Origin: Fidelibacterota bacterium
Lineage (GTDB): Bacteria > Fidelibacterota > Marinisomatia > Marinisomatales > TCS56
DNA: 64,000 nucleotides
NCBI GenBank assembly: GCA_043822705.1
Contig: JBDRBK010000115.1
Location: 49,993 to 113,992, forward strand
Direction of reading: 5' to 3'
A model generated the notes under the pieces. It saw only the letters and a program-made list of their open reading frames with translations. It did not search any database and was not told the DNA's origin. The position numbers and the translations under genes are program-made. Of the stretch, positions 2,466 through 55,764 are shown in pieces; position 1 is the first letter of the stretch, and each line of letters opens with the position of its first letter.

Positions 2466-2737
2466 TTAAATTAATCCGGTTGAGTTATTGTAATCTTCAA
2501 CGGTCGATTTCCCTCCCGCACAAGGCTCATGAAAATATTTTCCGTCAATAAGCCCGCCATCAGATTACATTATAAATAGTAAAATTTCAAGGAATCAAAC
2601 GCATTTGATTGGGCTTAATACACTTCTTTCCCTCAATCCCCGCCTCAGATTAGCGGTATAAATATGTCCGCCACAGATGGTTAGCAGGATCGCCCGGATT
2701 AAAATCGCAGTACGCAAACCACCGATGAGTGATTCGG

Positions 2738-3199
2738 TCAGATCGTCCCGGTTTCAAGGATCGCCTTCAGATTGCGGCCTTCTTCCAGCATATGTTGGCG
2801 CATGGCCGCGATCCGGTTCCTGAATAACAAAAGAAAAACGAAATCGAGCAGACGATCGATGAATTTTACCCTCGAACCGATTTCGAGTTCGGCGGTAAAG
2901 CGGACGTCATACCCGTTTCCCCGGGCCTCGAATGCCCCGCGTCCCATGCCGGCAATGGCAAATTCCACCCGCTGGTCCGGAACCACATTCGTGATGCGGA
3001 AGCGCAGCTTGTGGGATTTTCCATGGAGAAATTCCTCACATTCGATCTCAGAACCCACCGCCAGCAGCGATCCATGCAACACCCGGCAGGATACATGCGC
3101 CGGATGCCAGAGCGTATAGTGCCGCGGCATTTGCTCCAACCAGGCGAAAACTTCGCCGGGAGTTGTTCTGATATCAATGCTGTCGCGCAGTGAAATCAT
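2738..3199 (-). CDS. SRPBCC (START/polyketide-cyclase-like) family protein
   Basis: The translation is typical of SRPBCC proteins (SIDIRTTPGEVFAWL..., WHPAH...). I chose the internal ATG at 3199 because GGAAGGAG lies 5 nt upstream. The ORF track starts at 3277. Confidence 0.65.
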   Translation of the reverse strand: MISLRDSIDIRTTPGEVFAWLEQMPRHYTLWHPAHVSCRVLHGSLLAVGSEIECEEFLHGKSHKLRFRITNVVPDQRVEFAIAGMGRGAFEARGNGYDVRFTAELEIGSRVKFIDRLLDFVFLLLFRNRIAAMRQHMLEEGRNLKAILETGTI

Positions 3200-3286
3200 G
3201 TTTGCTCCTTCCAGGCTATTCTGCCGGATGTTGGCAACAGGTGCCGCGTGTACTGCGTCCGCCGGAATGGGTGACAAGTAGGGACT

Positions 3287-3616
3287 TCAATCAACGATGA
3301 ACAGCTTGGCCCCGACTGCCGTGAGCGAACGGTGTGGTTCGGTGTTGTCGGCGACCTGGTAGCTCATCCCCGGCCTCAGGGTGAAAATGCGACCGTCTTT
3401 GAGTTCGGTCTGCAGCTCACCCTCAATAACCAGCAGGATATGGCCCTTGTCGCACCAGTGATCGGCGAGATAGCCCGGCGAATACTCGACCATCCGGACG
3501 CGGATTTCGCCGAATTGCAGGGTGCGCCAGTACGCCCTGCCGCGTTCACCCGGATATTCGGTTTTCGGGATTTCCGACCACTCGATGACATTAAAGGGAA
3601 TGTCTGATAATTTCAT
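3287..3616 (-). CDS. Cupin-fold protein (DHCW-motif type)
   Basis: 109 aa with ADHWCDKGHILLVIEGEL and a cupin beta-barrel pattern. Confidence 0.7.
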   Translation of the reverse strand: MKLSDIPFNVIEWSEIPKTEYPGERGRAYWRTLQFGEIRVRMVEYSPGYLADHWCDKGHILLVIEGELQTELKDGRIFTLRPGMSYQVADNTEPHRSLTAVGAKLFIVD

Positions 3617-3649
3617 GATGAATCCTTTCGCTATTCCTAACCGCTTGAC

Positions 3650-4252
3650 TCACTGGTTTGTGTTGTGTCCGGTATTATTAGAATCCAGATAACTATCCAT
3701 ATCCAGTGCCACGCCGGCATCATTTACTGGAACATACCGCACTGCATTACCATGTCTTAGAATTATTTCCCGGGCGCCGTTATCGCCGCTGAGGGCCAAC
3801 AGTTCGGGGGTCAATTCGGAAGAAAAAAAGGTGGGGTGGCCCATCCGCTCACTGAAGGTGGGGACCAGAATCAACGGTTTGATCCGCTCCAATTCGGCCA
3901 GCAGAAATTCGATCGTCGCCGGTTGGATGAACGGCTTGTCGCCGTTGCAGAAAGCCCAATAATCCGGTTCTCCGGACGTATTTGTCAGGCCGGCCTTAAT
4001 CGATGAGGTCAGTCCGGTGGCAAAATCAGGATTGTAAACAATGGTGATCCGGTCACCGAAGCGCCGGTTGAGCAGCGGCTTGATTTTTTCCCATTGATGG
4101 CCGGTGACGACGGTGATTCCCATGTTCGAGTCGATGAAACTCCAGACAGTGGTTTCGATCACTGTCCGATTGCCCGATGGCAACAATAATTTGTTCGGCG
4201 GGTGGCGGCGGGAAAGTCCGGCGGCGGTGATGATCAATTGGGTCGTGGTCAC
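3650..4252 (-). CDS. mocA: MobA/MocA-like nucleotidyltransferase (molybdenum cofactor cytidylyltransferase-like)
   Basis: N-terminal IITAAGLSRR...NKLLLP motif of the NTP_transf_3 family. It overlaps yqeC by 4 nt, and the same pairing occurs in the E. coli yqeC-ygfJ locus. Confidence 0.75.
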   Translation of the reverse strand: MTTTQLIITAAGLSRRHPPNKLLLPSGNRTVIETTVWSFIDSNMGITVVTGHQWEKIKPLLNRRFGDRITIVYNPDFATGLTSSIKAGLTNTSGEPDYWAFCNGDKPFIQPATIEFLLAELERIKPLILVPTFSERMGHPTFFSSELTPELLALSGDNGAREIILRHGNAVRYVPVNDAGVALDMDSYLDSNNTGHNTNQ

Positions 4253-4986
4253 TGCACCGGTTCCAGATGATCCTTTTGTACGCTGCCGTACCAGGTGGGT
4301 CGGCCGGAGGCGGCGTAAATCGCGCGTGCCAATGCGCTGGCCTGACCGGGATGGGCGTCGGTCTTATTGACGAAATAGGTGCGCGGAATGGCCGGCGGTA
4401 TTTTTGATGAGTAGCCCTTTTCCGAGGTGACGACCCGGGTAATGAAAGCAGGCGTCAGCACGAAATTGTCGGCGATGCCCCAGAATTCGCGGAAGCGCTC
4501 CGGGCGGTGTACCAGTCCGTCGGCCAGGGTCGTGCCGACCACATCGGCGCCGACGATGACGATCACCCGATCGAAGAAATCCGGGACCATCGGGTCGTGA
4601 TCGCAATGGACCTTCAACGGCCGGTTGCGGGCACCGTCGCATTCAACAATCGTGACATCGGCCTGGTCTTTGAATTGCTCCAATTCATCCATGGTGATGC
4701 CGTCCACTTTGTGGGCATTCAGGCAGGTGCCCATCACGCACAGGGGATTGTGGCGGGCGAACCAGGTGGCTAAATCGCCGCTGCCGATTTCATCCCGGCA
4801 GATAATTTTAGGGTCGGTATGAAATGCAGATTTGGTAATCGAGGTCAACAGGACCCGGCCAAACACTTGCACCAGTTCCCGGCCCAGCCGTTGCTGCAGA
4901 CCGGTCTTGCCGCCGCCGCCCAGCAGGGCGATGCAGGCACCGGCAACCGGGGCACCATCGGGGAAGGCCAGAGCGGTAAAGTCCAT
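4249..4986 (-). CDS. yqeC: Selenium-dependent molybdenum hydroxylase accessory protein YqeC
   Basis: P-loop-like LLGGGGKTGL near the N-terminus, ~245 aa, and its position next to mocA and XDH-family genes. Confidence 0.75.
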   Translation of the reverse strand: MDFTALAFPDGAPVAGACIALLGGGGKTGLQQRLGRELVQVFGRVLLTSITKSAFHTDPKIICRDEIGSGDLATWFARHNPLCVMGTCLNAHKVDGITMDELEQFKDQADVTIVECDGARNRPLKVHCDHDPMVPDFFDRVIVIVGADVVGTTLADGLVHRPERFREFWGIADNFVLTPAFITRVVTSEKGYSSKIPPAIPRTYFVNKTDAHPGQASALARAIYAASGRPTWYGSVQKDHLEPVQ

Positions 4987-5175
4987 GAGTTAATTTACGG
5001 TCCTCAGGAATAAATTGCGCCAGCCGCTATCGGCAACCGCTGATTTGACGGAAGACTGGCAAACTTCCCGTATATTTCGCCCGGGAAAAAACCGACTTAA
5101 GATCGCGATTGAAAAATTGTCGTCGTGGTGCGGTCATCCCCGGTTCGATATCAATTATCAGGAAAAAGTACGACC

Positions 5176-6366
5176 ATGACCGGAATCATCCTAAAACCAG
5201 GCCGTGAACGCAGCCTGCTGCGGCTGCATCCCTGGATATTTTCGGGGGCGATCAAAAAAGTCAACAGCGCTCCCCGGCCGGGGGAGACGGTCGATCTGTT
5301 TTCCGCCGACGGCCGGTTCCTGGGGCGCGGGGCCTATTCCCCGGTTTCCCAGATTCGGGTGCGTGTCTGGACTTTCGACGAAGGCGAGACGATCGACGTG
5401 GCATTCTTCGAAAAACGGATCAAGGCTGCCGTGGCCCTGCGTAAGGCAGCGGGAATTGCGCAGCAGACGGACGCCTGCCGGCTGGTGGCGACCGAGGCCG
5501 ACGGACTACCGGGACTGATAGTCGACCGTTACGGCGCCTTTCTGGTCTGCCAGTTTCTGAGTGCCGGGGCGGCGTATTGGCAATCTACTGTCGTCGATAT
5601 CCTGCGGCACTCGCCCGGCGTTACGGGAATCTATCAGCGCTCCGATGCCGACGTCCGTGGCAAGGAGGGTCTGGAGCCGGTCCGGGGACTACTGTGGGGC
5701 GCGGAACCGCCGGAGTTGGTGGAAATCGTTGAAAATGGTCTAAAATTTCTGGTGGACATTCGCAACGGCCACAAGACCGGTTTTTACCTGGACCAACGGG
5801 AGAACCGGCAACTGGTCCGTTCCTGTAGTGCCGATAAGGATGTGCTGAATTGTTTCGCCTATACCGGCGGATTCGGGCTGGCGGCCCTCCAGGGCGGCGC
5901 CCGGCAGGTAACCAACGTGGAAAGCGTGGCCGGCCTGCTATCGCTGATCGATCAGAATCGGCAACTGAATTCATTAGACGAACAACTTTGTATGAACGTG
6001 AAGGCCGATGTATTCCAATTGTTGCGACAATACGACGAAACGGGCCGGACCTTCGATATCATCGTTCTGGACCCGCCGAAATTCGCCGAATCGCAGAGCA
6101 ATCTGCCCAGGGCCAGTCGCGGCTACAAGGATATCAACCGGTTGGCTTTCAAGTTACTGCGGCCGGGCGGGCTGCTGTTTACTTTTTCCTGTTCGGGTCT
6201 GATGAAGATGGACTTGTTTCAAAAGATCGTGGCCGATGCCGCCCTCGATGCGGGGCGCGATGGGCGGATTCTGCAATGGCTGCGGCAGGGGGCCGACCAT
6301 CCTGTGACGCTGCCCTTTCCCGAGAGCCTGTACCTGAAAGGCTTGCTGGTTGAGGTTGTTGAATAA
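5176..6366 (+). CDS. rlmI: 23S rRNA (cytosine-C5)-methyltransferase RlmI
   Basis: LKPGRERSLLRLHPWIFSGAI N-terminus, PUA-like region and class I SAM-MTase core (NCFAYTGGFG, VLDPPKF). ATG at 5176 is preferred over the GTG at 5125. Confidence 0.85.
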   Translation: MTGIILKPGRERSLLRLHPWIFSGAIKKVNSAPRPGETVDLFSADGRFLGRGAYSPVSQIRVRVWTFDEGETIDVAFFEKRIKAAVALRKAAGIAQQTDACRLVATEADGLPGLIVDRYGAFLVCQFLSAGAAYWQSTVVDILRHSPGVTGIYQRSDADVRGKEGLEPVRGLLWGAEPPELVEIVENGLKFLVDIRNGHKTGFYLDQRENRQLVRSCSADKDVLNCFAYTGGFGLAALQGGARQVTNVESVAGLLSLIDQNRQLNSLDEQLCMNVKADVFQLLRQYDETGRTFDIIVLDPPKFAESQSNLPRASRGYKDINRLAFKLLRPGGLLFTFSCSGLMKMDLFQKIVADAALDAGRDGRILQWLRQGADHPVTLPFPESLYLKGLLVEVVE

Positions 6367-6462: not shown

Positions 6463-6987
6463 ATGCGCAGAATTTTACTCTTTTGTATGACTTTTCTTAT
6501 GCTTGGCTTAATGGCCGGTTGTTCGAACACAGATGAATCCCTTTGCGATTTCGGCCTTTACCTGCTGGCGGATACTACCCTGAGCTATGCCGAGATTGCC
6601 GACAAATCACTTGGTAAACTGAAATTGCAGGATAATCCGGTGATTATATCCGAAGACATTCAAAGTTACGAGGTATTGTATTCTTCCGATTCTACCTATT
6701 CTTTGTTCCATAGAATGGTAGTAACGGCTGCGACAGTCGATAAACTGGGATCGGAAATCATTCCTTATGTGGTGAAAGTCGGCTCCAATCGAATCTACCT
6801 GGGCGAATACTGGCCCCAATTGATGTCGATTATGGCTCAAACAGTTACGATGGTCAATATGGCGTATGTGGATTTAGTTTTTATTGCTAATAATGACACA
6901 GGTGCTGAATTAATAAACGATTTCCGAATAGTAGCAGCCCTTGAACAGGGCGGGGTAGAGATCGTGTATGAAGATATCAGCAACTGA
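6463..6987 (+). CDS. Hypothetical lipoprotein
   Basis: Signal peptide with lipobox (LMLGLMAGC); AGGAGG lies 6 nt upstream of the ATG at 6463; lower GC. Confidence 0.6.
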   Translation: MRRILLFCMTFLMLGLMAGCSNTDESLCDFGLYLLADTTLSYAEIADKSLGKLKLQDNPVIISEDIQSYEVLYSSDSTYSLFHRMVVTAATVDKLGSEIIPYVVKVGSNRIYLGEYWPQLMSIMAQTVTMVNMAYVDLVFIANNDTGAELINDFRIVAALEQGGVEIVYEDISN

Positions 6988-7108
6988 ATAGAATCCATCA
7001 TCATTTTGAACGGAATCGTGGTATTGGAGCTGATCCGATAAGTTTCCATCTCCGACTGAAATCTTAGTAAATTATATCGATAGAAAGGGCAAAGAGTAAG
7101 AATTAATT

Positions 7109-8743
7109 ATGGCACATTTGCAGTTTGAAATTTCCGGAAATATTGTCGATATATTCAATCAACGCACCTTCCCCGGCCGGATTGCCGTTGAAAACGGACG
7201 CATCGTAGCGATTGATGAAACCAGCCATGCCGTAGAACAGACTATCTTGCCGGGTCTGATCGACGCCCATATTCACATCGAAAGCTCAATGCTGGTGCCC
7301 ACGGAATTCGCCCGGCTGGCGCTAGCGCACGGCACGCTGGCGGCGGTTTGTGATCCCCATGAGATTGCCAATGTACTAGGTGTCGCAGGGGTGGAATTCA
7401 TGCTGAAAAACGCTGCGCGATCACCCTTCAAATTTCATTTTGGCGCCCCTTCCTGCGTACCGGCGACACCGTTCGAAACCGCCGGTGCGACCATTACCGC
7501 GGCCGATATCGAACGGTTATTTTCCCGGCGGCAGCTCAAATTCCTCAGTGAAATGATGAATGTCCCTGGTGTGCTACTGGACCTGCCGGAGGTGACGGCC
7601 AAACTGGCTCTGGCCCGTAAATACGGCCGGCTGGTGGATGGTCATGCCCCGGGGCTGCAGGGATCCGCGGCCGGAAAATATATCGCTGCAGGTATCACGA
7701 CCGACCACGAATGCGTGACCCTGCCGGAAGCCCGGGAGAAAATCACACGGGGGATGAAAATTCAGATTCGGGAAGGCAGCGCCGCCCGAAATTTCGACGA
7801 TCTGTATCCATTAATTGACGAATACCCGGGTATGTGCATGCTCTGCAGCGACGACAAACATCCCGACGACCTGGTGCGCGGGCACATCAACGAGCTGGTC
7901 CGACGCGGGCTGGCGGCCGGACTCAATCCATACAACCTGCTGCGGGCGGCCTGTCTCGCTCCGGTGGAGCATTACGATCTGGAGGTGGGCCTGCTGCGGG
8001 TGGGCGATCCGGCCGATTTCATCGTGGTGGACGATCTGGCGCAGTTCAATGTGATTCGGACTTATATCGATGGAATCCTGGTGGCGGAAAACGGCTGCTC
8101 GGCATTACCGGCCGTCGCGGTCGAGTCGCTGAATAAATTCAATTGCCAGCGCAAGCAGATTACCGATTTCGCCGTGCCGGCGGCCGGTAATAAAATCCGG
8201 ACCATCGATGTGATTCCCGGCCAGTTAATCACCGGTAGTGCCTTGGTCGAACCGTGGATTTCCGATGGGAACGTGGTGGCCGATCCCGGTCGCGACATAC
8301 TGAAATTGACGGTGGTCAACCGTTATGCCAATGCCAGGCCGGCGCTGGGTTTCGTGCGCAATTTCGGTCTTAAAACCGGTGCGATTGCCTCATCGGTGGC
8401 TCATGACAGCCATAATATTGTTGCTCTGGGCGCCAGCGACGAAGAACTATGCCGGGTGGTAAATCTGGTGATCGAACAACGGGGCGGAATCGCCGCCGTT
8501 GGTGGAATGGAAGAAGTGATTATGCCGCTGCCGGTGGCTGGTATCATGAGCGACCGTGACGGACAGACTGTGGCCGGGCTGTATTCCGCTTTGGATCGCT
8601 TTGCCAAGGGTCTTGGTTCATCCCTGCCGGCGCCCTTCATGAGCTTGTCCTTCCTGGCCTTGCTGGTCATCCCCGAGCTGAAACTCAGCGATCAAGGTCT
8701 CTTCGATGGAATAAATTTTAAATTCACTTCCGTCTTTGGATGA
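7109..8743 (+). CDS. ade: Adenine deaminase
   Basis: 544 aa with GLIDAHIHIESSML and overall amidohydrolase/adenine deaminase architecture. Confidence 0.85.
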   Translation: MAHLQFEISGNIVDIFNQRTFPGRIAVENGRIVAIDETSHAVEQTILPGLIDAHIHIESSMLVPTEFARLALAHGTLAAVCDPHEIANVLGVAGVEFMLKNAARSPFKFHFGAPSCVPATPFETAGATITAADIERLFSRRQLKFLSEMMNVPGVLLDLPEVTAKLALARKYGRLVDGHAPGLQGSAAGKYIAAGITTDHECVTLPEAREKITRGMKIQIREGSAARNFDDLYPLIDEYPGMCMLCSDDKHPDDLVRGHINELVRRGLAAGLNPYNLLRAACLAPVEHYDLEVGLLRVGDPADFIVVDDLAQFNVIRTYIDGILVAENGCSALPAVAVESLNKFNCQRKQITDFAVPAAGNKIRTIDVIPGQLITGSALVEPWISDGNVVADPGRDILKLTVVNRYANARPALGFVRNFGLKTGAIASSVAHDSHNIVALGASDEELCRVVNLVIEQRGGIAAVGGMEEVIMPLPVAGIMSDRDGQTVAGLYSALDRFAKGLGSSLPAPFMSLSFLALLVIPELKLSDQGLFDGINFKFTSVFG

Positions 8744-25217: not shown

Positions 25218-25651
25218 CCATCGAATTTATCTTGAATGACCGGCGCGTTGCAGTTGAAGCGGAGCCGGGCGCCAACCTGTTGGAAATGCTGCGGGAGCGG
25301 GGTTTGTTCAGCGTCAAGCATGGCTGCGATCACGGCGAATGCGGCGCTTGCACCGTGCTGCTGGACGAACGGGCCGTTAATGCCTGCCTGGTGCTGGCTT
25401 TTTCAGTGGCCGGGAAGAGGGTGGAGACGGTGGAGAAATTCAGCAGTCACGACCACTTGCACCCGCTGCAGGAAAAATTCATCGCCAGCGGGGCGATCCA
25501 GTGCGGTTTCTGCACGCCGGGGATGATCCTGGCGCTGGAAGCGCTACGGCGGGAGAAAGCGAATCCCACCGAAAGCGACGTCCGCGATGCCCTGGCCGGC
25601 AATCTCTGCCGTTGTACCGGCTACGTTAAACCGGTGGAGGCGGCCCAATGA
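25214..25651 (+). CDS. (2Fe-2S)-binding small subunit (set 2)
   Basis: CDHGECGACTV and QCGFCTPG...CRCTGY. Confidence 0.9.
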   Translation: MTIEFILNDRRVAVEAEPGANLLEMLRERGLFSVKHGCDHGECGACTVLLDERAVNACLVLAFSVAGKRVETVEKFSSHDHLHPLQEKFIASGAIQCGFCTPGMILALEALRREKANPTESDVRDALAGNLCRCTGYVKPVEAAQ

Positions 25652-27933
25652 AGGTGATCGGCCAACAGACCGCCCGCATCGACGGCCGTGCCCTGGCTAC
25701 CGGTCAGCCGGTATTCGCCGACGATATTGAATTAAAAAACGTGCTGCACTGTAAGGTGTTGCACAGCACCGTGGCGCATGCCCGGATCAAAAAAATTGAT
25801 GCCGGCCGCGCCCTGCGGCGGCTCGGGGTGGTGGCGGTCTATACGCATGCCGATTTTCCGCGGCATTATTACACCACCGCCGGTCAGGGGTATCCCGAAC
25901 CGGGTCCCCGGGATTACCGCATCCTGGACGACACCGTCCGCTACGTGGGTGACCGGGTGGCGTTGGTGGTGGCCGAATCGCTGGCCGCTGCCGAAGCTGC
26001 CTTGACGGCAATTGCCGTGGAATATGAAGAATTACCGGCGGCATTCGACCCGCGCGAAGCGCTGAACGGTAAGGTGGTAATCCATCCCGAGGCAGGCAAG
26101 ACCGGCATTCACGAAGTCGGCCGCAACGTTGCCGCCCACATCAGCGCCGAAGTTGGCGATGTGGAGGCGGCATTCAAGTCGGCACCCCACGTATTTGCCG
26201 GGGAATACAGTACGCCCTTCGTCCAGCAGGCCCATATCGAACCGCATATCTGCCTGAGCTGGCGCGACGAGCACAACCGGATCGTGATTCGGACCGCCAC
26301 CCAGGTACCCTTTCATGTGCGGCGGATCGTGGCCGAGGTTCTGAATATACCCGTGGGACAGGTGCGGGTGATCAAGCCCCGGATCGGCGGCGGCTTCGGC
26401 GGCAAACAGGAAATATTGAACGAGGAACTGGTGGCGGCGGTGACGCTGAAAACCGGTCGTCCGGCCCGGCTGGAATACACCCGGGAAGAGGAATTTTACG
26501 CCGCCCGCTGCCGGCACCCGCAGATCACCAATTTCCGGATCGCCGTGGATGACGACCACTGCATCCAGGCCATCGACCTGAAAATACTGGAAAACACCGG
26601 CGCCTATGGCGCCCATTCACTGACGGTGATGTCGGTGACGGCCCAGAAGACGCTGTCGCTGTATCGGGCACCCAATCTGCGGGTCCACGGCGATGCGGTC
26701 TACACCAACCTGCCGATCGCCGGGGCCTACCGTGGCTATGGCGCGCCCCAGGGTTTTTTCGGCCTGGAATCGCTGCTGGATGAGATTGCCGATCAATTGG
26801 GCATCGATCCGGTGGAATTTCGCCATAAGAATTATGTGCGGGTGGGCGACGACCTGCCGATTGCCGCCATTCTGGGCGAAGGCCGGGAGGGTTACCCGGC
26901 CCAGGTGCGCTCATCGGGATTGCGGGAGTGCCTGGAGGAAGGCAAAAAACTGATCGGCTGGGACAAACTGCGCAACGCCGCCAGGAGCGGTGCGATCCGG
27001 CGCGGCGTCGGCGTGGCGGCGGTGGGGCAGGGCAGCGGGATTCCCGGGATCGACATGGGTTCGGCCTTTATTAAAATGAACGAGGACGCCAGTTTCAACC
27101 TGCTGGTGGGCGCCACCGACCTGGGGACCGGCTCCGACACGGTGCTGGCCCAGATCGCCGCCGAGGAACTGGGCGTAGCGGTGAATAAAATCATTGTCTA
27201 CTCGTCGGACACCGACCACACCCCCTTCGATACCGGCGCCTATGCTTCCAGCACGACTTACATCTCCGGGGCGGCCGTCAAAAAAGCGGCGGCGGCGGTG
27301 AAACGGCAGATTCTGGAACTGGGTAAAAAGTTATTGTCCGTGGATCAGGCGGAAATCCGGGACGGGCAGGTAGTGGCCCCGGGTGGCGAGAGCATATCCT
27401 TTGGAGAAATCTGCACCAAAACCTTTTATACTGATGAGCAGACCCAGATCATGGCCACCGCCAGCCACTTGAGTTTCGATTCGCCCTCGCCCTACAACGC
27501 CACATTTGCCGATGTGAGCGTCGATACCGAAACCGGGCTGGTAACCGTGAACAAGGTGGTATCGGTGACTGACATCGGCCAGGTGATCAACCCGCAGATG
27601 GCGGAGGGGCAGACCGAAGGGGGCATCCCCCAGGCGTTGGGGATGGCGTTGACCGAATTCATGGTTTTCGACGATAAAGGCCGGCCGCGGAATACCGACT
27701 TCAACCGTTACCATATTTACACAGCCATCGATATGCCTGAGATCGTGGCCCGATTCATCCCTACCCACGAGCCCACCGGACCCTACGGCGCCAAGGCGGC
27801 GGCGGAGATACCGATCAATGGTCCCGCCCCGGCGGTGCTGAATGCGATTTACAATGCCTGCGGGGTGCGGATTCGGGAGCTGCCGGTCACGCCGGAGAAG
27901 GTGCTGGCGGGATTAGTGAGGAGTAATAAGTAA
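25648..27933 (+). CDS. XDH-family molybdopterin-binding large subunit (set 2, XdhD-like)
   Basis: RIDGRALATG, GGGFGGKQ, AYRGYGAPQ and a C-terminal ...ELPVTPEKVL. Confidence 0.9.
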   Translation: MKVIGQQTARIDGRALATGQPVFADDIELKNVLHCKVLHSTVAHARIKKIDAGRALRRLGVVAVYTHADFPRHYYTTAGQGYPEPGPRDYRILDDTVRYVGDRVALVVAESLAAAEAALTAIAVEYEELPAAFDPREALNGKVVIHPEAGKTGIHEVGRNVAAHISAEVGDVEAAFKSAPHVFAGEYSTPFVQQAHIEPHICLSWRDEHNRIVIRTATQVPFHVRRIVAEVLNIPVGQVRVIKPRIGGGFGGKQEILNEELVAAVTLKTGRPARLEYTREEEFYAARCRHPQITNFRIAVDDDHCIQAIDLKILENTGAYGAHSLTVMSVTAQKTLSLYRAPNLRVHGDAVYTNLPIAGAYRGYGAPQGFFGLESLLDEIADQLGIDPVEFRHKNYVRVGDDLPIAAILGEGREGYPAQVRSSGLRECLEEGKKLIGWDKLRNAARSGAIRRGVGVAAVGQGSGIPGIDMGSAFIKMNEDASFNLLVGATDLGTGSDTVLAQIAAEELGVAVNKIIVYSSDTDHTPFDTGAYASSTTYISGAAVKKAAAAVKRQILELGKKLLSVDQAEIRDGQVVAPGGESISFGEICTKTFYTDEQTQIMATASHLSFDSPSPYNATFADVSVDTETGLVTVNKVVSVTDIGQVINPQMAEGQTEGGIPQALGMALTEFMVFDDKGRPRNTDFNRYHIYTAIDMPEIVARFIPTHEPTGPYGAKAAAEIPINGPAPAVLNAIYNACGVRIRELPVTPEKVLAGLVRSNK

Positions 27934-28208
27934 TAGGTAATTAGTGAGCCTGCCTGCGCCAAGGCTTCGGCAGGTGAGAGCAGCTTAGCTGCTAAGTGAG
28001 AATGTCAGCCTGTGGCGGACTGGAGAGAATGCTTCGCTTAGTGAGGAACAACAAACTTGCTGTCATACTGAGCCTGCCTGTCAGGCGTAACGCAGTATAG
28101 ACTGATCGAAGTATGATTCAATAAAACACCCTTCCCCGCCTGCGTACCTCCGGCGGGCAGGGACCAGCTCAGGGTGACATTGTCTTAATGTATCTGGTTC
28201 GTCCAATA

Positions 28209-28276
28209 CCTGCGGGGTGCGCATCCGCGAGCTGCCGGTGACACCGGAGAAGGTGCTGAATGTCTTAATAAAATGA
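28209..28276 (+). pseudogene. Orphan relic of the last codons of an XDH-family large-subunit gene
   Basis: 28209-28258 matches 27857-27906 at 45/50 nt. It is in frame (CGVRIRELPVTPEKVL) and then runs into AT-rich codons and a TGA at 28274-28276. There is no upstream coding body. Confidence 0.75.
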
Positions 28277-28310
28277 AAAATACATTCATTTACTAAGGGG
28301 ATATTTTATT

Positions 28311-28838
28311 ATGAAATTAAGAATGACAGAGGATGAGTATTTTAGTGATTTAACTTGGATCGGTCTTATAGGAGCCATTGCTGGTGCAGTTGGTGGGGCC
28401 TACCTTTCTGGTAAAACACCATTAGAAGAAGAAATTGTTACAAATTATAATATTGAGCAGAAGGAATTGGAGAGAAAACAGAGGCTGCTTGAGCCAATAT
28501 TAGAATTGGAAAAACTAAAATCACATTCAAATGCTTTCAAGATTTATGTTGAATCAGTTGAACTATTTCTAAATGGATATTATCGAGCTTCATGCATATT
28601 CGCGGCTGCATTATTAGAACATATCCTGAAAAATAAATTTGGTCACGAAAAAGGATTTTCTGATTTAATTAACATTGCATACAATACGAGCCTACTATCA
28701 AAAAGTGATAGACATTTTCTAGATGGAATTAGAGAAGAAAGGAATTCATTAATTCACGATTTCTCTTATAATATAAATGAGGATGAGGCAAAGACACTAT
28801 TGTACCTGTCAGTAGCATTGATTAATAGATTATTATAG
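28311..28838 (+). CDS. Membrane-anchored HEPN-like (DUF4145-like) protein
   Basis: 175 aa with one TM helix (WIGLIGAIAGAVGGAYL), a coiled-coil stretch and a C-terminal helical domain carrying an Rx4H motif (RNSLIH). AT-rich codon usage is unlike the flanks. Confidence 0.6.
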   Translation: MKLRMTEDEYFSDLTWIGLIGAIAGAVGGAYLSGKTPLEEEIVTNYNIEQKELERKQRLLEPILELEKLKSHSNAFKIYVESVELFLNGYYRASCIFAAALLEHILKNKFGHEKGFSDLINIAYNTSLLSKSDRHFLDGIREERNSLIHDFSYNINEDEAKTLLYLSVALINRLL

Positions 28839-28852
28839 CTGTTAACTATATA

Positions 28853-29764
28853 ATGGTTAATAAACCAAAGAAACAGCACTATGTGGCCCGATCATACCTT
28901 AAAGGCTTTTCTAAAGAATATCTCAAACCAATGAGAAACCAAAATAATAATGAATTTTACTTATGGTACTATGATATTGAACGAAATGAATATAGAAAAC
29001 AACATATAAAGGAAGTTGCACAACAAAGATACTTCTATTCATGGATAACAGAAAATGGTACTCGTAATTATAGCTTAGAGGAACACCTTTCAGAAATTGA
29101 ATGCGCAATCTATCCACTAATTTGTGATATTAATACAGTATCAACGGGATTGCAAAGCAGGAAGCAAAAAACTGGTCAAGTTACAATATCTCAAAACGAA
29201 CGTGACTGGTTAATCGAGTATATTAGAATAATGATGGTTAGAGTACCATCAACAATTAATACGATTAGAGATTCGTTGATTGATGAGTTATCAGCATTTA
29301 CTCAAGAAAACGTTAACAGTTCAAGCGAACTCATAAAACATGATTCTCTAATGGTTGCATTTGAAATGGGAACAAAAGATAACAAATTTCTTGATATCCT
29401 TAGAGAACGTGAATTATGGGTGTTTTACCCAGCAGATCAACAAACAAGTTTTATAACTACTGATAGACCAGTCACACGATTTAATAAACTTAACCCAGAT
29501 GGAATAATCTACGACAATACCGAAATATATATACCACTTACTCAAAACTGTTTATTAATGGTGACCGGTGTCGAAAAAAATAAAAATCTTCTTCGATTCA
29601 CCTCAATAAACGATAGGAGTTTAATAAGACGGATGAATCGTTATCTTGCGTCTTTTGCCACTAAAATTGTAATTGGAAGAGATAAAACTTTGTTAATATC
29701 AATTGTGAAAAACCTACAGTTTGATAAACAACCTAAGTATATAGAAGGTAAGTATAAATTTTAG
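28853..29764 (+). CDS. DUF4238 domain protein
   Basis: N-terminal KKQHYVARSYLKGF (the family's HY.P..YL..F signature) and a central SFITTDRPV motif. It lies 14 nt after the upstream gene and is AT-rich. Confidence 0.7.
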   Translation: MVNKPKKQHYVARSYLKGFSKEYLKPMRNQNNNEFYLWYYDIERNEYRKQHIKEVAQQRYFYSWITENGTRNYSLEEHLSEIECAIYPLICDINTVSTGLQSRKQKTGQVTISQNERDWLIEYIRIMMVRVPSTINTIRDSLIDELSAFTQENVNSSSELIKHDSLMVAFEMGTKDNKFLDILRERELWVFYPADQQTSFITTDRPVTRFNKLNPDGIIYDNTEIYIPLTQNCLLMVTGVEKNKNLLRFTSINDRSLIRRMNRYLASFATKIVIGRDKTLLISIVKNLQFDKQPKYIEGKYKF

Positions 29765-29980
29765 ATTATCCATTTGTATGCAATAGTGACTACTATTCTT
29801 TGTATAGAGCAATTTCAAACCACTATAGAGAAACGGTTAAAACGGTTCTATCTGACTTGATGCATTTTTCTTCCAGATAAATCCATGTACTTGGAAATTC
29901 GGTGCCAAACTGATTGATAAAACGTGAATCGACCCACCCCGTGCCGATTACCGGGACACACCTACCAAGAGTGTTATATT

Positions 29981-30008
29981 GTAAGGGCACGATGCATCGT
30001 GCCCCTAC
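29981..30008. repeat. 28-bp near-perfect palindrome GTAAGGGCACGATGCATCGTGCCCCTAC heading tandem array 2
   Basis: One mismatch. The outer arms match the 527-556 palindrome, but the centre differs in a self-complementary way. Confidence 0.9.
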
Positions 30009-30050
30009 CTCCCAGGCCACATAGTGCTAACTGGAAAGGTGGGGAAATAC

Positions 30051-30426
30051 GTGCATTGGCCTGCTAAAACCTGTGTATAGGCCTACTAAAATGCGTGCAT
30101 GGGTCTGGTAAAGCACGCATATAGGCACGGTAAAGTGCGTGTATGGGTCTGGTAAAGCACGCATATGGGCATGGTAAAACGCGTGCACCGGCCAGGCAAA
30201 ACCCGCATATGGAACTGGTAAAGTGCGCGTATGATCACACTAAAACGCGCAGTCAGACCAATCGGAATGCACGGTCGGACCCCTCGGTACATGCGGTCGT
30301 ACCCCTCGGAATGCACGGTCAGACCCCTCGGAACGGTCGGTCAGACCCCCCGGAACGTGCGGTCAGACCCCCCGGAACGTGCGGTCAGACCCCTCGGTAC
30401 GGTCGGTCAGACCCACTGGAATACGT
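30051..30426. repeat. Tandem array 2: ~9 units of 22 bp (G[Y]RTATGGGYCTGGTAAARYRC type) followed by ~8 units of ~22 bp (GGTCAGACCCCTCGGAACGTGC type, some 18/26 bp)
   Basis: Read directly. Type A units start at 30051 + 22n (n=0-8), and type B units run from 30249/30273. Confidence 0.85.
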
Positions 30427-30625
30427 GGTTGGGGACAGGTGTTAGCCGTGGTGATGGATTTATTTTATGAGCACCAGCTTATTGGTCCGGGTGAAGCCGC
30501 TGCCGGTGCGCAGGCGGGGAAGCATGAGCCTGCCTGTGCGACGTAATCCGTCAGTGGGTGGCTGAAGGCGTATCGAAGCATGAGCCTGCTTGTCCGCCAC
30601 TCCCGCCCCGCCGTAACTTCCATCC

Positions 30626-32428
30626 ATGTCCACCGACCATATACGCAATTTTTGCATCATCGCCCATATCGATCACGGTAAGTCGACCCTGGCCGACCGC
30701 CTGCTGGAAGAGACCCACACGCTGACCAAAAAGGAGATGAAGGCCCAGGTGCTGGACAGCATGGACCTGGAGCGCGAGCGTGGCATAACGATCAAGAGCC
30801 ACCCGATCCAGATGCATTACCGCGACCGCGATAAACGTGAGTACGTCCTGAACCTGATCGACACGCCCGGACATGTCGATTTCAGCTATGAGGTCTCGCG
30901 CTCGCTGGCGGCCTGCGAAGGCGCCCTGCTGCTGGTGGACGCCGCCCAGGGGGTGGAGGCCCAGACGGTCAGTAACGCCTACCTGGCGATCGACAACGAC
31001 CTGGTGCTGATCCCGGTGATCAACAAGGTCGATCTGCCGGCGGCCCGGGTGTCCGAGGTGATCGAGCAGATCGTGGAACTGATCGGCTGTTCGGTCGCCG
31101 AAATTATCCAGATCAGCGCCAAGACCGGGCAGGGCACCGCCGATATCTTCCGGGCCGTAATCGACCGCATCCCGCCGCCGCCGGATCATTCCGCGGATCG
31201 GCCGCGGGCCCTGATCTTCGATTCGATGTATGACAACTACCGCGGGGCGATTCCCTACGTGCGGATCGTCGACGGGATCTTGAAACCCGGCCTGACGGCG
31301 AAATTCTTCGGCCATGATTTCACCTATGAAATCACCGAAGTCGGGCATTTCGTCCTGCGGCAGATTCCCTGCGCGGAACTGCGATCGGGCGACGTGGGCT
31401 ATCTGATCGCCAATATCCGCGAAGTCGGACATATCCTGCCCGGCGATACGATCACCACCCGCCAGAACCCGGCGCCGGCAAGGCTGCCGGGGTATAAGAA
31501 AATCAAACCGATGGTGTTTTCCGGGCTGTACCCTTCCGATGCCGACGACTACGACCAACTGCGCCAGGCCCTCGATAAGCTCAAACTCAACGATGCCTCG
31601 CTGGTCTATGAACCGGAAACCAGCGAAGCGCTGGGGTTCGGTTTCCGGGCCGGCTTTTTGGGGCTGCTGCACCTGGAGATCGTTCAGGAACGGCTGGAGC
31701 GGGAGTTCGACATCGATCTGGTCACGACCTCGCCCAATGTGCGCTATCAGGTCCTGGGAAAAGACGGCGACCTGTTAGAGGTCGATACACCGGCGAAAAT
31801 GCCGCCGGCCGGGCAGATCGAGGAAATTCGCGAACCGTTCGTAGATGCGGAAATCATCACCCCCAAGGAATTCATCGGCACGATCATGAAATTGTGCCAG
31901 AATCACCGCGGCACCTATAAGAACACCCATTATCTCTCGGCCGAGAAGGCCCAGGTGCACTACGATCTGCCGTTGGGCGAAATAATTTTCGACTTTTATG
32001 ATAAACTCAAATCGTCCACCCGCGGTTACGCGTCGTTCGACTACAACCTGACCGGCTACCGGGCGGGCGATCTGAAAAAGCTTGATATCCTGATCAATAA
32101 CGAACCGGTGGATGCGCTGTCGAGCATCTGCCATGCCGATGACGCCTACCACCGCGGCGTCGCCCTGACCTCGAAACTGAAGGAACTGATCCCGCGCCAG
32201 ATGTTCGATGTGCCGATCCAGGCCGGCATCGGCACCAGGATCATCTCGCGGGCCAACGTGCGTGCGCTCAAGAAGAATGTGACCGCCAAATGTTACGGTG
32301 GCGATATTTCCCGCAAACGTAAACTGTGGGAAAAGCAGAAAGAGGGTAAGAAGCGCATGAAACAGATCGGCCGGGTCGAAATTCCCCAGGAAGCGCTGCT
32401 GGCGGTGCTGCGCATCGACCGCGAGTAA
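30626..32428 (+). CDS. lepA: Translation elongation factor 4 (LepA)
   Basis: IRNFCIIAHIDHGKSTLADRLL, DTPGHVDF, NKVDL, and a C-terminal LepA-specific region. Confidence 0.95.
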   Translation: MSTDHIRNFCIIAHIDHGKSTLADRLLEETHTLTKKEMKAQVLDSMDLERERGITIKSHPIQMHYRDRDKREYVLNLIDTPGHVDFSYEVSRSLAACEGALLLVDAAQGVEAQTVSNAYLAIDNDLVLIPVINKVDLPAARVSEVIEQIVELIGCSVAEIIQISAKTGQGTADIFRAVIDRIPPPPDHSADRPRALIFDSMYDNYRGAIPYVRIVDGILKPGLTAKFFGHDFTYEITEVGHFVLRQIPCAELRSGDVGYLIANIREVGHILPGDTITTRQNPAPARLPGYKKIKPMVFSGLYPSDADDYDQLRQALDKLKLNDASLVYEPETSEALGFGFRAGFLGLLHLEIVQERLEREFDIDLVTTSPNVRYQVLGKDGDLLEVDTPAKMPPAGQIEEIREPFVDAEIITPKEFIGTIMKLCQNHRGTYKNTHYLSAEKAQVHYDLPLGEIIFDFYDKLKSSTRGYASFDYNLTGYRAGDLKKLDILINNEPVDALSSICHADDAYHRGVALTSKLKELIPRQMFDVPIQAGIGTRIISRANVRALKKNVTAKCYGGDISRKRKLWEKQKEGKKRMKQIGRVEIPQEALLAVLRIDRE

Positions 32429-53370: not shown

Positions 53371-53831
53371 TGAATTAATAGCACCTGATTAGGCGCCTGA
53401 GAGTGCTGGAAAGATATTTGAGAAATATGAGAAATGGAATTGGTTTTACGATTAATAAGCTGGATATCTTTCCTTTACTCGTTCAATGCAGTCAACGCCG
53501 AAATCCAATTTATACCGCGGTGGATTCCAGTCGATTCCCAGTTCTGCGTTGAAATGCGGTACATGTTCTATTTATTGGTTAGAAATGGAAAGAAATGCCC
53601 AATAAAACATTCTTTGGTTCAATATGGTATGATTGCCATTTCTGCGTGGTTTTTCGGTCAAGGGTATAGCCTTGGTCCAAGTCGTTGGATTTCCAGTAAC
53701 CAAGAATATTTTCTTCAAATGAATAAAAGAATAGGGTGCCGTATTCAGCATTAATGCTCAGCGAGGATGAAATAAAATATTCTATTCCAATAATGGTTGA
53801 TATACCAACTGCAAAATAGTTATTTGTTTTT

Positions 53832-54639
53832 GGTGATTATGCATTTTTCGGACCAAGTGTTGAATTCATTTGGTTATGCTGGAAATCATTAGAAAAATAA
53901 TAGCTGGGAAACAGTGTCCGAAATGTGGTCATAAAACGTTGTACGTACTTAAAGACAAGCGCTTCAAATGTAGTGGGTGCAGCCACAAATACAGTCCCAG
54001 TCCGATTGCGAAGGACCTCCAACTTCTTCATTACTTCAGCTTGGAAATTCCGGCCAATAAAGCATCCAAAGACCTTGGTTGGAGTTACCACAAGGTTAAA
54101 AACCACTATATGAATTACCGCCTGGATATTTTTGATTATCTGGTAGAGGAATATCGTAAACTGTCTGGTGAAATTGAATGTGATGAATCTTATTTTGGTG
54201 GACGAAGAAAGGGACCACGGGGACGTGGTTCTCGAGAGAAAGTAAAGGTATTCGGGATGTTGGAACGTCAGGGTAGAATACTCACCGCAATTGTTGATAA
54301 CGTCTCTGCCGAAACTCTTATGAATGAGATCAGACAACATGCTGAAAAAGGAAGTGTGTTTTACACTGATAAGTTTAAATCCTATAAATCTTTGAGATTT
54401 TACGGCAAACATCTCACAGTTGATCATGGGAAAGAATTTGGGAATGGAAGACGGCATATTAATGGACTTGAAGGCTTTTGGTCCTTTGCCAAAGAAAGAC
54501 TTTTGAAGTACCATGGAGTTAGTAAATCCTACTTCCATTTATACCTCAAAGAAATGGAATTCAGGTATAACTACAGAAAGGAAAATCTCTATCAAAAACT
54601 GGTCAATATTCACTTTGGTCCGAATTTTAACTAATTACC
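53832..54639 (+). mobile_element. IS1595-family insertion sequence (~808 bp) with imperfect terminal inverted repeats and an 8-bp target-site duplication TTGTTTTT
   Basis: TSD copies at 53824-53831 and 54640-54647. The left end is GGTGATTATGCATTTTTCGGACCAAGTG, and the reverse complement of the right end is GGTAATTAGTTAAAATTCGGACCAAAGTG. Confidence 0.8.
53876..54634 (+). CDS. IS1595-family (ISXO2-like DDE) transposase
   Basis: N-terminal zinc ribbon CPKCGHK...CSGCSHK, then IECDESYFGGRRKGPRGRG...VFGMLERQG...FYTDKFKSY...VDH. Confidence 0.85.
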   Translation: MLEIIRKIIAGKQCPKCGHKTLYVLKDKRFKCSGCSHKYSPSPIAKDLQLLHYFSLEIPANKASKDLGWSYHKVKNHYMNYRLDIFDYLVEEYRKLSGEIECDESYFGGRRKGPRGRGSREKVKVFGMLERQGRILTAIVDNVSAETLMNEIRQHAEKGSVFYTDKFKSYKSLRFYGKHLTVDHGKEFGNGRRHINGLEGFWSFAKERLLKYHGVSKSYFHLYLKEMEFRYNYRKENLYQKLVNIHFGPNFN

Positions 54640-55168
54640 TTGTTTTTTTATCTAAATAATAGCCGCCAGCTTTTGAATACTCAAATTCTTCTGTGGACTT
54701 ACTGTAGCCAAAGTAAGGACCAATACCATATAATGGTTTTATATCACTAACGGTTTTTCCATAGCGGTTGAAATGGTTGGTGAGTACAATATCCAGCAGG
54801 TCTTTTTTCCGGTCGCAGCCGCCGGTTATATTATTACTTTCTTTACCGATTGATTTAGAGTAGGTAAAACTTAAGCCAATATCTCTGGATCGTTTTGGTC
54901 CATTGTAAACACGATATGTCAGGTTGAGTCCATTGTAGTCTGACAAGTTAATATCTTTTTCTACACCAAATTGGAGGGCGCGAGTCCTTGTGAAGACTGA
55001 ATTATCAGTTGCTTTCCCAGTCGAAAAACCGATTGTGCAAAAGCAAAACAGCACTACCTTGGCAACCGTCAGACATGTAATATTCATAGCCTAATCCCCA
55101 TTTAAAAAAGGTTGGTTTAAATCGTCATTTTACACGGTGATGCAGATTAAATATACTTAGTAATATTG

Positions 55169-55546
55169 TTACTGATCAGCATATTTGTTTCCGGATAAAG
55201 CCAGTCGGTAATACCAACTGATTAAAAACAATCCACCGATCAGGAACAGCGGTCCCGAGATACCGAAATAAGCGCTGATATGAAACCGCCCCCAGGCCCA
55301 GACAATATAGAAAATCCCCAATCCGATATAGGCCACGGCACCAATCCAGGGCCGGCGCCAGGCCAGGATCAGGACAATCACGACCAGGTAGGTCGGTATC
55401 AGGTGAATCAGAAAAGCCGCAATCGATTTCCAGAATCCATTGCCTGCGCCGAAGGAATCCAGGGCAAATAAGCTGATAAACAGGGCAAAAATAATTGTGA
55501 TGATGCGGGGGGTCCAGAGCAGAATTTTTGTGGTACGATTATTCAT
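55169..55546 (-). CDS. Hypothetical 4-TM membrane protein
   Basis: Hydrophobic ORF. The ATG at 55546 (MNNRTTKILLW) is preferred over 55594. Confidence 0.55.
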   Translation of the reverse strand: MNNRTTKILLWTPRIITIIFALFISLFALDSFGAGNGFWKSIAAFLIHLIPTYLVVIVLILAWRRPWIGAVAYIGLGIFYIVWAWGRFHISAYFGISGPLFLIGGLFLISWYYRLALSGNKYADQ

Positions 55547-55764
55547 ACTGTTTACTCCAGAATTTCTGGTTTTAAACCTGTCGCCACCAGACAAGATCGA
55601 CTGGCACTAATTAAATGTACCAATTAATCTCACTTATAACCAAAAGGATTGAAATTGACCGACTGTGATCTAATCGTGCTCAACCAGTGGTGTTCAGCAA
55701 TCGTTGGAATTGTACAGGTTATAATCAGCGCAACCTGTACGGTCTGTGGTTTAATTTCCGGCCA

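Follow-up and report, generated by a model that had tools for sequence, protein, structure and literature searches.

A low-GC islet with a DUF4145-type HEPN gene and a DUF4238 gene as a candidate acquired defence islet in a Marinimicrobia-like genome

The islet and its two genes

The DNA considered here, called the window, is a 64,000-nucleotide (64-kb) stretch of contig JBDRBK010000115.1 from a Fidelibacterota bacterium, a Marinimicrobia-like genome. Between a purine/pyrimidine-catabolism-type operon and lepA, the window carries an AT-rich islet of about 1.7 kb (approximately 28259-29940) with two genes (Table 1). Gene 1 encodes a small protein with a HEPN domain of the DUF4145 type and a putative transmembrane (TM) segment; gene 2 encodes a protein of the DUF4238 family. 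A first-pass annotation, made from the sequence and without database searches, had presented this TM-HEPN plus DUF4238 pair as a candidate two-gene defence system.

Base composition marks the islet sharply. In 200-nucleotide (nt) windows, the content of guanine plus cytosine (GC) declines from about 0.60 to some 0.30 over the stretch from about 28260 to about 29900 and then recovers, host-level composition being regained at about 29940. The lowest 1.5-kb value of the entire 64 kb (0.313, 4.4 standard deviations below the window mean) lies at the islet. The relatives of gene 1 and gene 2 all lie in DNA of 27-35% GC, which is consistent with a low-GC donor. The islet is of foreign origin, most likely acquired horizontally from a low-GC donor.

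The two genes are intact open reading frames (ORFs) in the same direction, 14 nt apart, without frameshifts or internal stops; apart from them, no ORF of at least 40 amino acids (aa) is found on the + strand between 28259 and 29940. The AT-rich stretch directly upstream of gene 1 presumably holds its promoter, and an imperfect 19-nt inverted repeat (28256-28274 / 28303-28321) spans this region and the start codon. Scans with a sigma-70 consensus, which is uncalibrated for this phylum, and for intrinsic terminators returned nothing above shuffled expectation. Rfam gave no credible match over 27800-30700. By Pfam, the neighbours within about 8 kb are an iron-sulphur/flavin adenine dinucleotide (FAD) oxidoreductase, an amidohydrolase, the FAD and molybdenum (Mo) subunits of a hydroxylase, lepA, an Rce1-like protease and Lgt; no restriction-modification gene is among them. 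The nucleotidyltransferase (MNT) family, which supplies the antitoxin of HEPN-MNT toxin-antitoxin pairs, is absent from the Pfam matches of gene 1 and gene 2, and the DUF4238 gene is the sole gene adjacent to gene 1.

Gene 1 matches Pfam DUF4145 (PF13643) at E=1.1e-7 and 32.3 bits, above the gathering cut-off of 23.1, residues 85-164 corresponding to profile positions 5-84 of 88. DUF4145 belongs among the HEPN families (PMC3710099). The catalytic Rx4H motif of HEPN proteins reads RNSLIH in gene 1 (R144-N-S-L-I-H149, residues 144-149). Across a 20-sequence alignment of the gene 1 family, E103, L106, R141, R144, N145 and H149 are invariant; the invariance of R144 and H149 indicates an intact motif under selection. 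The AlphaFold2 (AF2) model is all-helical, with a mean predicted local distance difference test score (pLDDT) of 88. In a Foldseek comparison with the PDB, its top 29 matches are almost all HEPN domains (2hsb) or HepT toxins, with weak statistics (best match E=0.019, query-normalised TM-score 0.51), and a search of PDB sequences with the gene 1 profile gave marginal AbiV/HEPN matches only.

The family is small. With HMMER, run exhaustively against 1.84 billion cluster representatives, 50 relatives were recovered at E<=0.001; P0006 is the closest of them (50% identity, full length). A word-indexed search of 5.8 billion proteins recovered the gene 1 query itself only, an alignment of P0001 and P0006 found no relatives in GTDB representative genomes or IMG/VR, and plasmids searched by tblastn with gene 1 yielded no match.

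Membrane anchoring of gene 1 is plausible from its sequence. Residues 14-32 (LTWIGLIGAIAGAVGGAYL) reach a best 19-residue Kyte-Doolittle mean of 1.65, borderline against the classical 1.6; the AF2 model places a low-confidence helix at 7-32 (pLDDT 59-68) and predicts a long helix at residues 37-60. Relatives have a short Gly/Ala-rich segment at a like position, with Kyte-Doolittle values of 1.0-3.0, often below 1.6. In many family members, the hydrophobic segment is closely bracketed by a preceding Trp and a following Pro, neither being invariant.

Gene 2 is a full-length DUF4238 protein (PF14022; E=1.2e-30, 107.3 bits, cut-off 27), its residues 7-278 matching profile positions 1-280 of 281. 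It carries QHYVARSYLKGF at residues 8-19 and FITTDRPV at 200-207. In 76 diverse DUF4238 proteins, D204 and P206 are conserved in 100%, N262 in 99%, H9 and E76 in 97%, P228 in 93%, Y62 in 92% and R130 in 89%, and gene 2 keeps every residue conserved at >=89% in this set. The conserved His/Glu/Arg/Asp/Asn set suggests that gene 2, and DUF4238 generally, is an enzyme. The subfamily of gene 2 comprises 12 proteins even by profile search, the two best being 49-50% identical to it.

The fold gives little further guidance. The AF2 model of gene 2 has a pLDDT of 84 and a predicted template modelling score (pTM) of 0.84. Foldseek against the PDB returned noise only (Hsp90 and TRiC at TM-scores of about 0.1) and no mechanistic lead, and the DUF4238 profile found nothing meaningful among PDB sequences. 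Against BFVD, a single match is significant; it is to a protein of Stenotrophomonas phage Smp131 that is uncharacterised (E=4e-9, TM-score 0.51). Gene 2 is also 23% identical (E=4e-9) to DUF4238 proteins that lie directly 3' of P2-type gpA on IMG/VR contigs.

Most of what the first-pass annotation had described at the locus is thus borne out. The switch from GC-rich to AT-rich DNA at about 28260 and back is real, as are the two co-directional genes of 175 and 303 aa at 14-nt spacing and all of the peptide motifs quoted from them. Its HEPN/DUF4145-like reading of gene 1 agrees with a Pfam match above the curated cut-off and an Rx4H motif invariant in the family, and its DUF4238 reading of gene 2 with a full-length match and all near-invariant residues. 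The islet is, as it had said, of foreign composition and without an integrase. Two of its readings of gene 1 need qualifying: the single TM helix is borderline, and the coiled-coil segment amounts to a predicted long helix (residues 37-60).

Relatives and their genomic surroundings

Six loci carrying gene 1 relatives were recovered; they amount to five independent contexts, as L182 and L183 carry the same protein, P0007. Three of the five lie in restriction-modification (type I) operons. In L007, the gene for P0006 ends an hsdM-hsdS-Abi_C-hsdR-DUF4145 series; in L019 (P0009), the genes overlap in the order hsdS-DUF4145-hsdR; and in L020 (P0010), three DUF4145 paralogues and an NYN gene stand between an MmeI-type methylase gene and hsdS fragments. 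The other two contexts are without such genes: P0008 (L181) is solitary with housekeeping genes around it, and P0007 (L182) follows a signal-peptidase-II gene near a DUF4258 gene.

Two of these loci have features of their own. In L020, the gene 1 family is strikingly amplified in one place: genes for small DUF4145 paralogues of 188, 198 and 162 aa are packed, together with the NYN gene, between the MmeI/N6_Mtase gene and hsdS fragments (2539-6192). In L007, an AAA_15/AAA_21 ATPase and DUF4276 gene pair lies directly 3' of the closest gene 1 relative (6595-8566). This pair has what we take to be the PARIS (AriA/AriB) architecture, which would place the closest relative of gene 1 in a dense defence island.

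DUF4238 genes were sampled at 108 loci (85 with distinct proteins, about 640 kb) drawn from GTDB representative genomes, Joint Genome Institute (JGI) metagenomes, IMG/VR and exact-protein look-ups. Their tight same-strand neighbours (<=100 nt) are heterogeneous. Upstream they include RhuM, HipA, SLATT_5, HerA, an MmeI/Eco57I-type methylase, AlbA_2, P2 gpA, IS200 transposases and housekeeping enzymes; downstream they include TIR/SEFIR, PglZ, YhcG, AAA_21, a second DUF4238 gene and others. This heterogeneity marks DUF4238 as a mobile accessory gene that is often found in defence loci and has no fixed partner.

Some arrangements in this sample are worth recording individually. In L104 (3998-6128) and L109 (3963-6093), the DUF4238 gene is followed by a gene for a 381-aa TIR/SEFIR protein at gaps of 13 and 28 nt, respectively, and in L169 (42-7142), it sits between a PglX-like methylase and PglZ in a BREX-like operon. 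Unannotated genes of about 173 aa directly 3' of DUF4238 in L013 and L016 were considered as cryptic gene 1 homologues and discarded, there being no hidden Markov model (HMM) match and only a weak zinc-ribbon match in Pfam.

The pairing seen in the islet does not recur in the loci sampled. Profiles of the gene 1 family, built from the 20-sequence set or from family representatives of <=260 aa, found no member among the ORFs of the DUF4238 loci (0/108), and no DUF4238 gene occurs in the loci of gene 1 relatives (0/6). Neither gene is present near the Mo-hydroxylase or lepA orthologues of related genomes (0/149 loci, 1.57 Mb). The closest relatives of gene 1 and gene 2, each about 50% identical, stand in different contexts, and in neither is the other gene present.

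A candidate defence islet and competing explanations

The balance of these observations tips towards a minimal, horizontally acquired defence islet composed of two autonomous single-gene modules. Gene 1 and gene 2 are divergent members of known families, and their juxtaposition is unique in the loci reached, which counts against a two-gene system and not for one. The 14-nt spacing suggests that they are co-transcribed; the pairing resembles the close packing of genes usual in defence islands rather than an obligate two-component system. The two genes would accordingly act independently of each other, and by analogy with characterised members of their families each would have an anti-phage role.

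Gene 1 would be a latent metal-independent endoribonuclease (endoRNase), a role we infer from its family, its intact Rx4H motif and the precedents of RAZR/PD-T7-4 and PrrC. It is pictured as a dimeric HEPN RNase whose cytoplasmic domain might be held at the inner membrane face by the Gly/Ala-rich anchor. The enzyme would remain latent until a phage-derived cue appears; once triggered, it might cut cellular and/or phage RNA, with translation arrest and hence abortive infection as the outcome. Gene 2 would be a stand-alone DUF4238 enzyme that interferes with phage development, as judged from a family member in the P2 hotspot.

That member, Rst_DUF4238, came from the P2 gpA-gpQ hotspot; cloned as a single gene, it confers strong T7 resistance in E. 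coli (Rousset et al. 2022, PMC9122126). Gene 2 shares its Pfam family over the full length and keeps the near-invariant residues; both belong to a small variable insert, and the similarity in fold between gene 2 and a P2-like phage protein supports the link. It differs in being only 23% identical to the gpA-adjacent members, with a weak partial PADLOC match, in having a Marinimicrobia-like host and not an enterobacterial prophage, and in having a HEPN gene 14 nt upstream; it is known here from sequence.

For gene 1, the closest functional precedent is RAZR/PD-T7-4, in which a zinc finger is joined to a DUF4145 HEPN RNase that acts by abortive infection and requires a conserved Arg and His (PMC13017515). 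Both are small stand-alone proteins with a C-terminal DUF4145-type HEPN domain and conserved Arg and His; compared by description, gene 1 differs in that a hydrophobic N-terminal segment and a helical linker replace the zinc-finger sensor. Defence links had been claimed for both families at the outset, and the T7-protective DUF4238 gene and RAZR substantiate them.

Other likenesses are partial. PrrC is kept inactive by its restriction-modification partner (PMC3710099); in three of five contexts, gene 1 relatives are embedded in type I restriction-modification operons, and the hsdS-hsdR position in L019 equals that of prrC in PrrC-EcoprrI. Restriction-modification genes are absent for at least 8 kb around gene 1 itself, which has no ABC-ATPase domain and whose HEPN family is DUF4145 and not PrrC/RloC. 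A membrane-linked DUF4145 HEPN group with a "WP" TM segment was described computationally in 2013 (Anantharaman et al., PMC3710099). Its members resemble gene 1 in architecture, a DUF4145 HEPN domain preceded at the N-terminus by a single hydrophobic helix, which in gene 1 is putative; the likeness is by description and not by comparison with gi 153825856, and the Trp and Pro are not invariant in the gene 1 alignment. Finally, DUF4238 is also reported as a domain of a TIR defence system of E. coli that has been validated (PMC11350192). In that system and in the L104/L109 pairs, as in the islet, DUF4238 is joined with an abortive-infection effector domain in an adjacent gene; the islet differs in having a presumed HEPN RNase as effector where the others have a TIR NADase, in the upstream rather than downstream position of the effector gene, and in a pairing with DUF4238 that has no second sighting in the sampled loci.

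Several observations weigh against two independent defence modules. The PADLOC models respond weakly: DUF4238-Pers matches gene 2 at E=0.0016 and 16 bits over residues 7-169 only, probably too weak for an automatic call, and the NsnC model gives E=0.0073. The earlier expectation of profile support is therefore sustained by Pfam for both DUF4145 and DUF4238 and only weakly by PADLOC. The contexts are also few, with five independent ones for gene 1, and the contigs of the DUF4238 sample are often short. Most gene 1 relatives adjoin partner systems (restriction-modification), and a lone HEPN RNase may need a regulator. The 14-nt spacing and near-identical composition of gene 1 and gene 2 suggest that the two arrived and are expressed as a unit. 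Moreover, the three closest DUF4238 proteins (gene 2, P0003 and P0004; 49-50% identical) each have a different gene 14-33 nt upstream: the TM-HEPN gene at 14 nt for gene 2, a 410-aa SLFN_AlbA_2 protein at 33 nt in L001-L004, and a 131-aa RHH/RAMA-like protein at 24 nt in L005. Three differing upstream genes hint at a partner-swapping DUF4238 clade. TM-HEPN, SLFN_AlbA_2 and RHH/RAMA proteins are typical associates of restriction-modification loci.

These points lead to the strongest competing explanation, a two-component defence system in which DUF4238 provides a sensor or first-line activity and the membrane-anchored HEPN protein is the effector, or a PrrC-like back-up that DUF4238 silences or activates. 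Close spacing, common orientation and the same composition fit such a system, as do the restriction-modification-associated genes tightly upstream of the closest DUF4238 relatives (SLFN_AlbA_2 at 33 nt, RHH/RAMA at 24 nt), the DUF4238-TIR/SEFIR arrangements at 13-28 nt in both L104 and L109, and the E. coli TIR defence system with a DUF4238 domain (PMC11350192). The gene 1 relatives inside type I restriction-modification operons likewise resemble partner-silenced PrrC (PMC3710099). Yet the pair has no second example among 108 DUF4238 loci and 6 loci of the gene 1 family, the more distant members of the gene 2 subfamily have no tight upstream gene (gaps of 93-243 nt), a DUF4238 gene acts alone in E. 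coli (PMC9122126), and defence islands are commonly tightly packed without functional coupling. We regard this explanation as unlikely, if the most serious of the competitors. Its more general form, with DUF4238 as a sensor or regulator wired to swappable upstream partners, the HEPN protein silenced in PrrC-like fashion and the TM-HEPN plus DUF4238 pair a real two-component system, earns somewhat less credence.

It is here that the first-pass annotation fares worst. It had put forward the TM-HEPN and DUF4238 pair as a candidate undescribed two-gene module and had named in advance a lack of co-occurrence elsewhere as a result that would count against it; with 0/108, 0/6 and 0/149 loci, no co-occurrence was seen in the loci sampled, and the claim of a recurrent system fails on that point. 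A more modest claim survives, namely that genes of defence-associated types occupy an acquired islet.

A role outside defence is a further, rather improbable, explanation. The islet would then be a selfish addiction or toxin cassette, or gene 1 would be a membrane RNase for stimulus-dependent RNA turnover with an unrelated DUF4238 gene beside it. TM-linked DUF4145 HEPN proteins have indeed been proposed as surface-signal-responsive RNases (Anantharaman et al., PMC3710099). Two gene 1 relatives lie outside restriction-modification loci, one of them amid housekeeping genes, many DUF4238 neighbours are housekeeping genes, the model of gene 2 matches no solved structure and the biochemical function of DUF4238 is not established. 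On the other hand, both families recur in restriction-modification operons, BREX-like loci and P2 hotspots and beside TIR genes, members of both have experimental defence activity (PMC9122126, PMC13017515), and nothing resembling an antitoxin, for instance an MNT gene, accompanies the pair in the islet. It is very unlikely that the islet is inert cargo, a recent arrival that its 55-60% GC host expresses poorly and that is heading for decay: despite the extreme codon-composition mismatch (GC at third codon positions, GC3, 0.25 vs 0.75), the lack of any promoter or terminator above chance in scans whose sigma-70 consensus is uncalibrated for this phylum, and a decayed gene fragment at the left border, both ORFs are full length, with no frameshifts or internal stops, and all family-conserved residues are intact.

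If the reading as two autonomous defence modules is true, the islet offers a small, clean case of defence genes carried into Marinimicrobia; this marine phylum is uncultured, and its repertoire of phage defences has been little studied. HEPN and DUF4238 genes in a small acquired islet will not surprise specialists, and the by-products may be more useful than the islet itself. Two divergent members are added to families of partly known (DUF4145 HEPN) or unknown (DUF4238) mechanism. The gene 1 subfamily consists of rare, small, hydrophobic-anchor HEPN proteins, often in type I restriction-modification operons at a PrrC-like position, and the near-invariant His/Glu/Arg/Asp/Asn set of DUF4238, together with a fold that has no solved counterpart, points to an uncharacterised enzyme. 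Were the pair interdependent after all, DUF4238 would be a module coupling to different effectors, which would help to explain its scattered contexts.

Borders of the islet and other features of the window

On the left side, the AT-rich DNA begins directly beside a relic in which the final ~24 codons of the Mo-hydroxylase gene are duplicated. Positions 28204-28258 of the relic are 89% identical over 55 nt to 27852-27906 in the intact gene, and the relic is 85% identical over 47 nt to the related locus L021. Because the relic is GC-rich and Marinimicrobia-like, the islet appears once to have followed a Mo-hydroxylase gene immediately, either in the present lineage or in a related one, and the junction to have been later rearranged or imported by recombination. 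The two copies of the 55-nt repeat were rejected as attachment (att) sites: they enclose 297 nt only and the AT-rich genes lie outside, so that a simple attL/attR model fails.

Comparison with the closest relatives delimits what is peculiar to this genome. On the left, nucleotide similarity (L021, L022, L052) covers the catabolic operon and ends at about 27953, a short way past the Mo-hydroxylase stop codon; on the right, it restarts at about 30580-30597, some 30-45 nt before the start of lepA. The roughly 2.6 kb between (27953-30580) are private to this genome and hold the islet, a palindrome, 22-nt tandem units and four GAGCCTGCCTG motifs. No empty site could be used as a reference: lepA does not occur within 6 kb at any of the 69 related Mo-hydroxylase loci (0/69), and there is thus no direct before/after comparison of the junction.

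The motif (T)GAGCCTGCCTG occurs four times in direct orientation on the + strand, at 27946 and 28070 to the left of the islet and at 30526 and 30582 to its right. With at most one mismatch, it has 5 matches in the 64 kb against 0.73 expected, and four of the five lie in these two intergenic regions; the fifth is at 15042 on the - strand, with 1 mismatch. The motifs were not adopted as terminal repeats of a mobile element, since all four are direct and lack extended similarity around them. An imperfect 26-nt inverted repeat (28131-28156 / 30497-30522) adjoins the inner motifs.

Other repeats are present on both sides. Directly 3' of the Mo-hydroxylase gene (27914-28045), motifs of the forms TAGTGAG, TAAGTGAG and TGGTGAG recur at intervals of about 25-50 nt, and the same TAGTGAG-type series lies 3' of the Mo-hydroxylase orthologue in L022 (8268-8380), a locus of a related metagenome-assembled genome (MAG); the series may represent a conserved element, regulatory or repetitive, at the 3' side of the gene. 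Just beyond the right edge, the perfect palindrome GGGCACGATGCATCGTGCCC has no trailing T-run and is therefore not a classical terminator. The 22-nt tandem array that follows has a counterpart at 579-974 (21-nt period, 18 copies), and such arrays therefore characterise the genome, not the islet. The units are CAACCCGAAGCTTTGGGGAAC at the 21-nt period and AAATACGTGTATAGGCCTGGTA then AACGCACGGTCAGACCCCTCGG at the 22-nt period; minisatellites of two helical turns seem to be a feature of this genome.

One further MAG, SRP200020_co6_38, bears on the junction. Its Mo-hydroxylase contig (L022) ends 440 nt past the gene in DNA of 34% GC, and its lepA contig (L185) starts 572 nt before lepA in DNA of 38% GC. 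These contig ends are compatible with a repeat or variable insert at the same junction, the adjacency of L022 and L185 being unproven. An IS3-family transposase fragment at the head of L185, suggested by a resemblance of its peptide GNCYDNAMAESFFKTL / first codons GKGNCYDNAMAESFFKTL to the C-terminal signature of that family, was dropped, as Pfam did not confirm it (50-aa fragment). The first-pass annotation had seen a horizontal-acquisition hotspot in the relic gene end, GC-rich motif pairs and tandem array around the islet. All three are real and acquisition stands; an insertion hotspot is plausible, resting on this locus and one ambiguous related MAG.

Table 1. Features of the islet, its flanks and a second AT-rich island (positions in the window; GC3, GC content at third codon positions)
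Feature	Position	Strand	GC	GC3	Remarks
Mo-hydroxylase (xanthine-dehydrogenase-type) large-subunit gene (flank)	25648-27933	+	0.612	0.751	Intact; MoCoBD_1, MoCoBD_2, Ald_Xan_dh_C
55-nt direct repeat, copy 1	27852-27906	+			3' end of Mo-hydroxylase gene
Spacer, Mo-hydroxylase stop to relic	27934-28203		~0.5		TAGTGAG-type motifs; GAGCCTGCCTG at 27946, 28070
Relic duplicate of last ~24 Mo-hydroxylase codons	28204-28275	+			Decayed tail ends at stop codon
AT-rich upstream region of gene 1	28259-28310	+	0.19		
Gene 1	28311-28838	+	0.326	0.244	175 aa; hydrophobic segment 14-32, helical linker 37-60, DUF4145-type HEPN ~73-174
Gene 2	28853-29764	+	0.317	0.250	303 aa; full-length DUF4238
AT-rich non-coding islet tail	29765-29940		0.36		
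Perfect 20-nt palindrome GGGCACGATGCATCGTGCCC	29985-30004				Just beyond islet right edge; single occurrence in window
22-nt tandem array	30045-30441				18 in-phase units; diverged halves 30045-30220, 30244-30441
Right GAGCCTGCCTG pair	30526-30536 and 30582-30592	+			One mismatch (30582-30592)
lepA (flank)	30626-32428		0.588	0.782	
IS1595-family transposase	53870-54634	+			DDE_Tnp_IS1595, E=4e-34
150-aa ORF	54635-55087	-			No Pfam match
DUF7670 membrane protein	55169-55594	-			

A second AT-rich island lies at 53400-55700 of the window, where GC is about 0.36-0.40 vs 0.55-0.60; it contains the transposase and the two - strand genes given in the last rows of Table 1.

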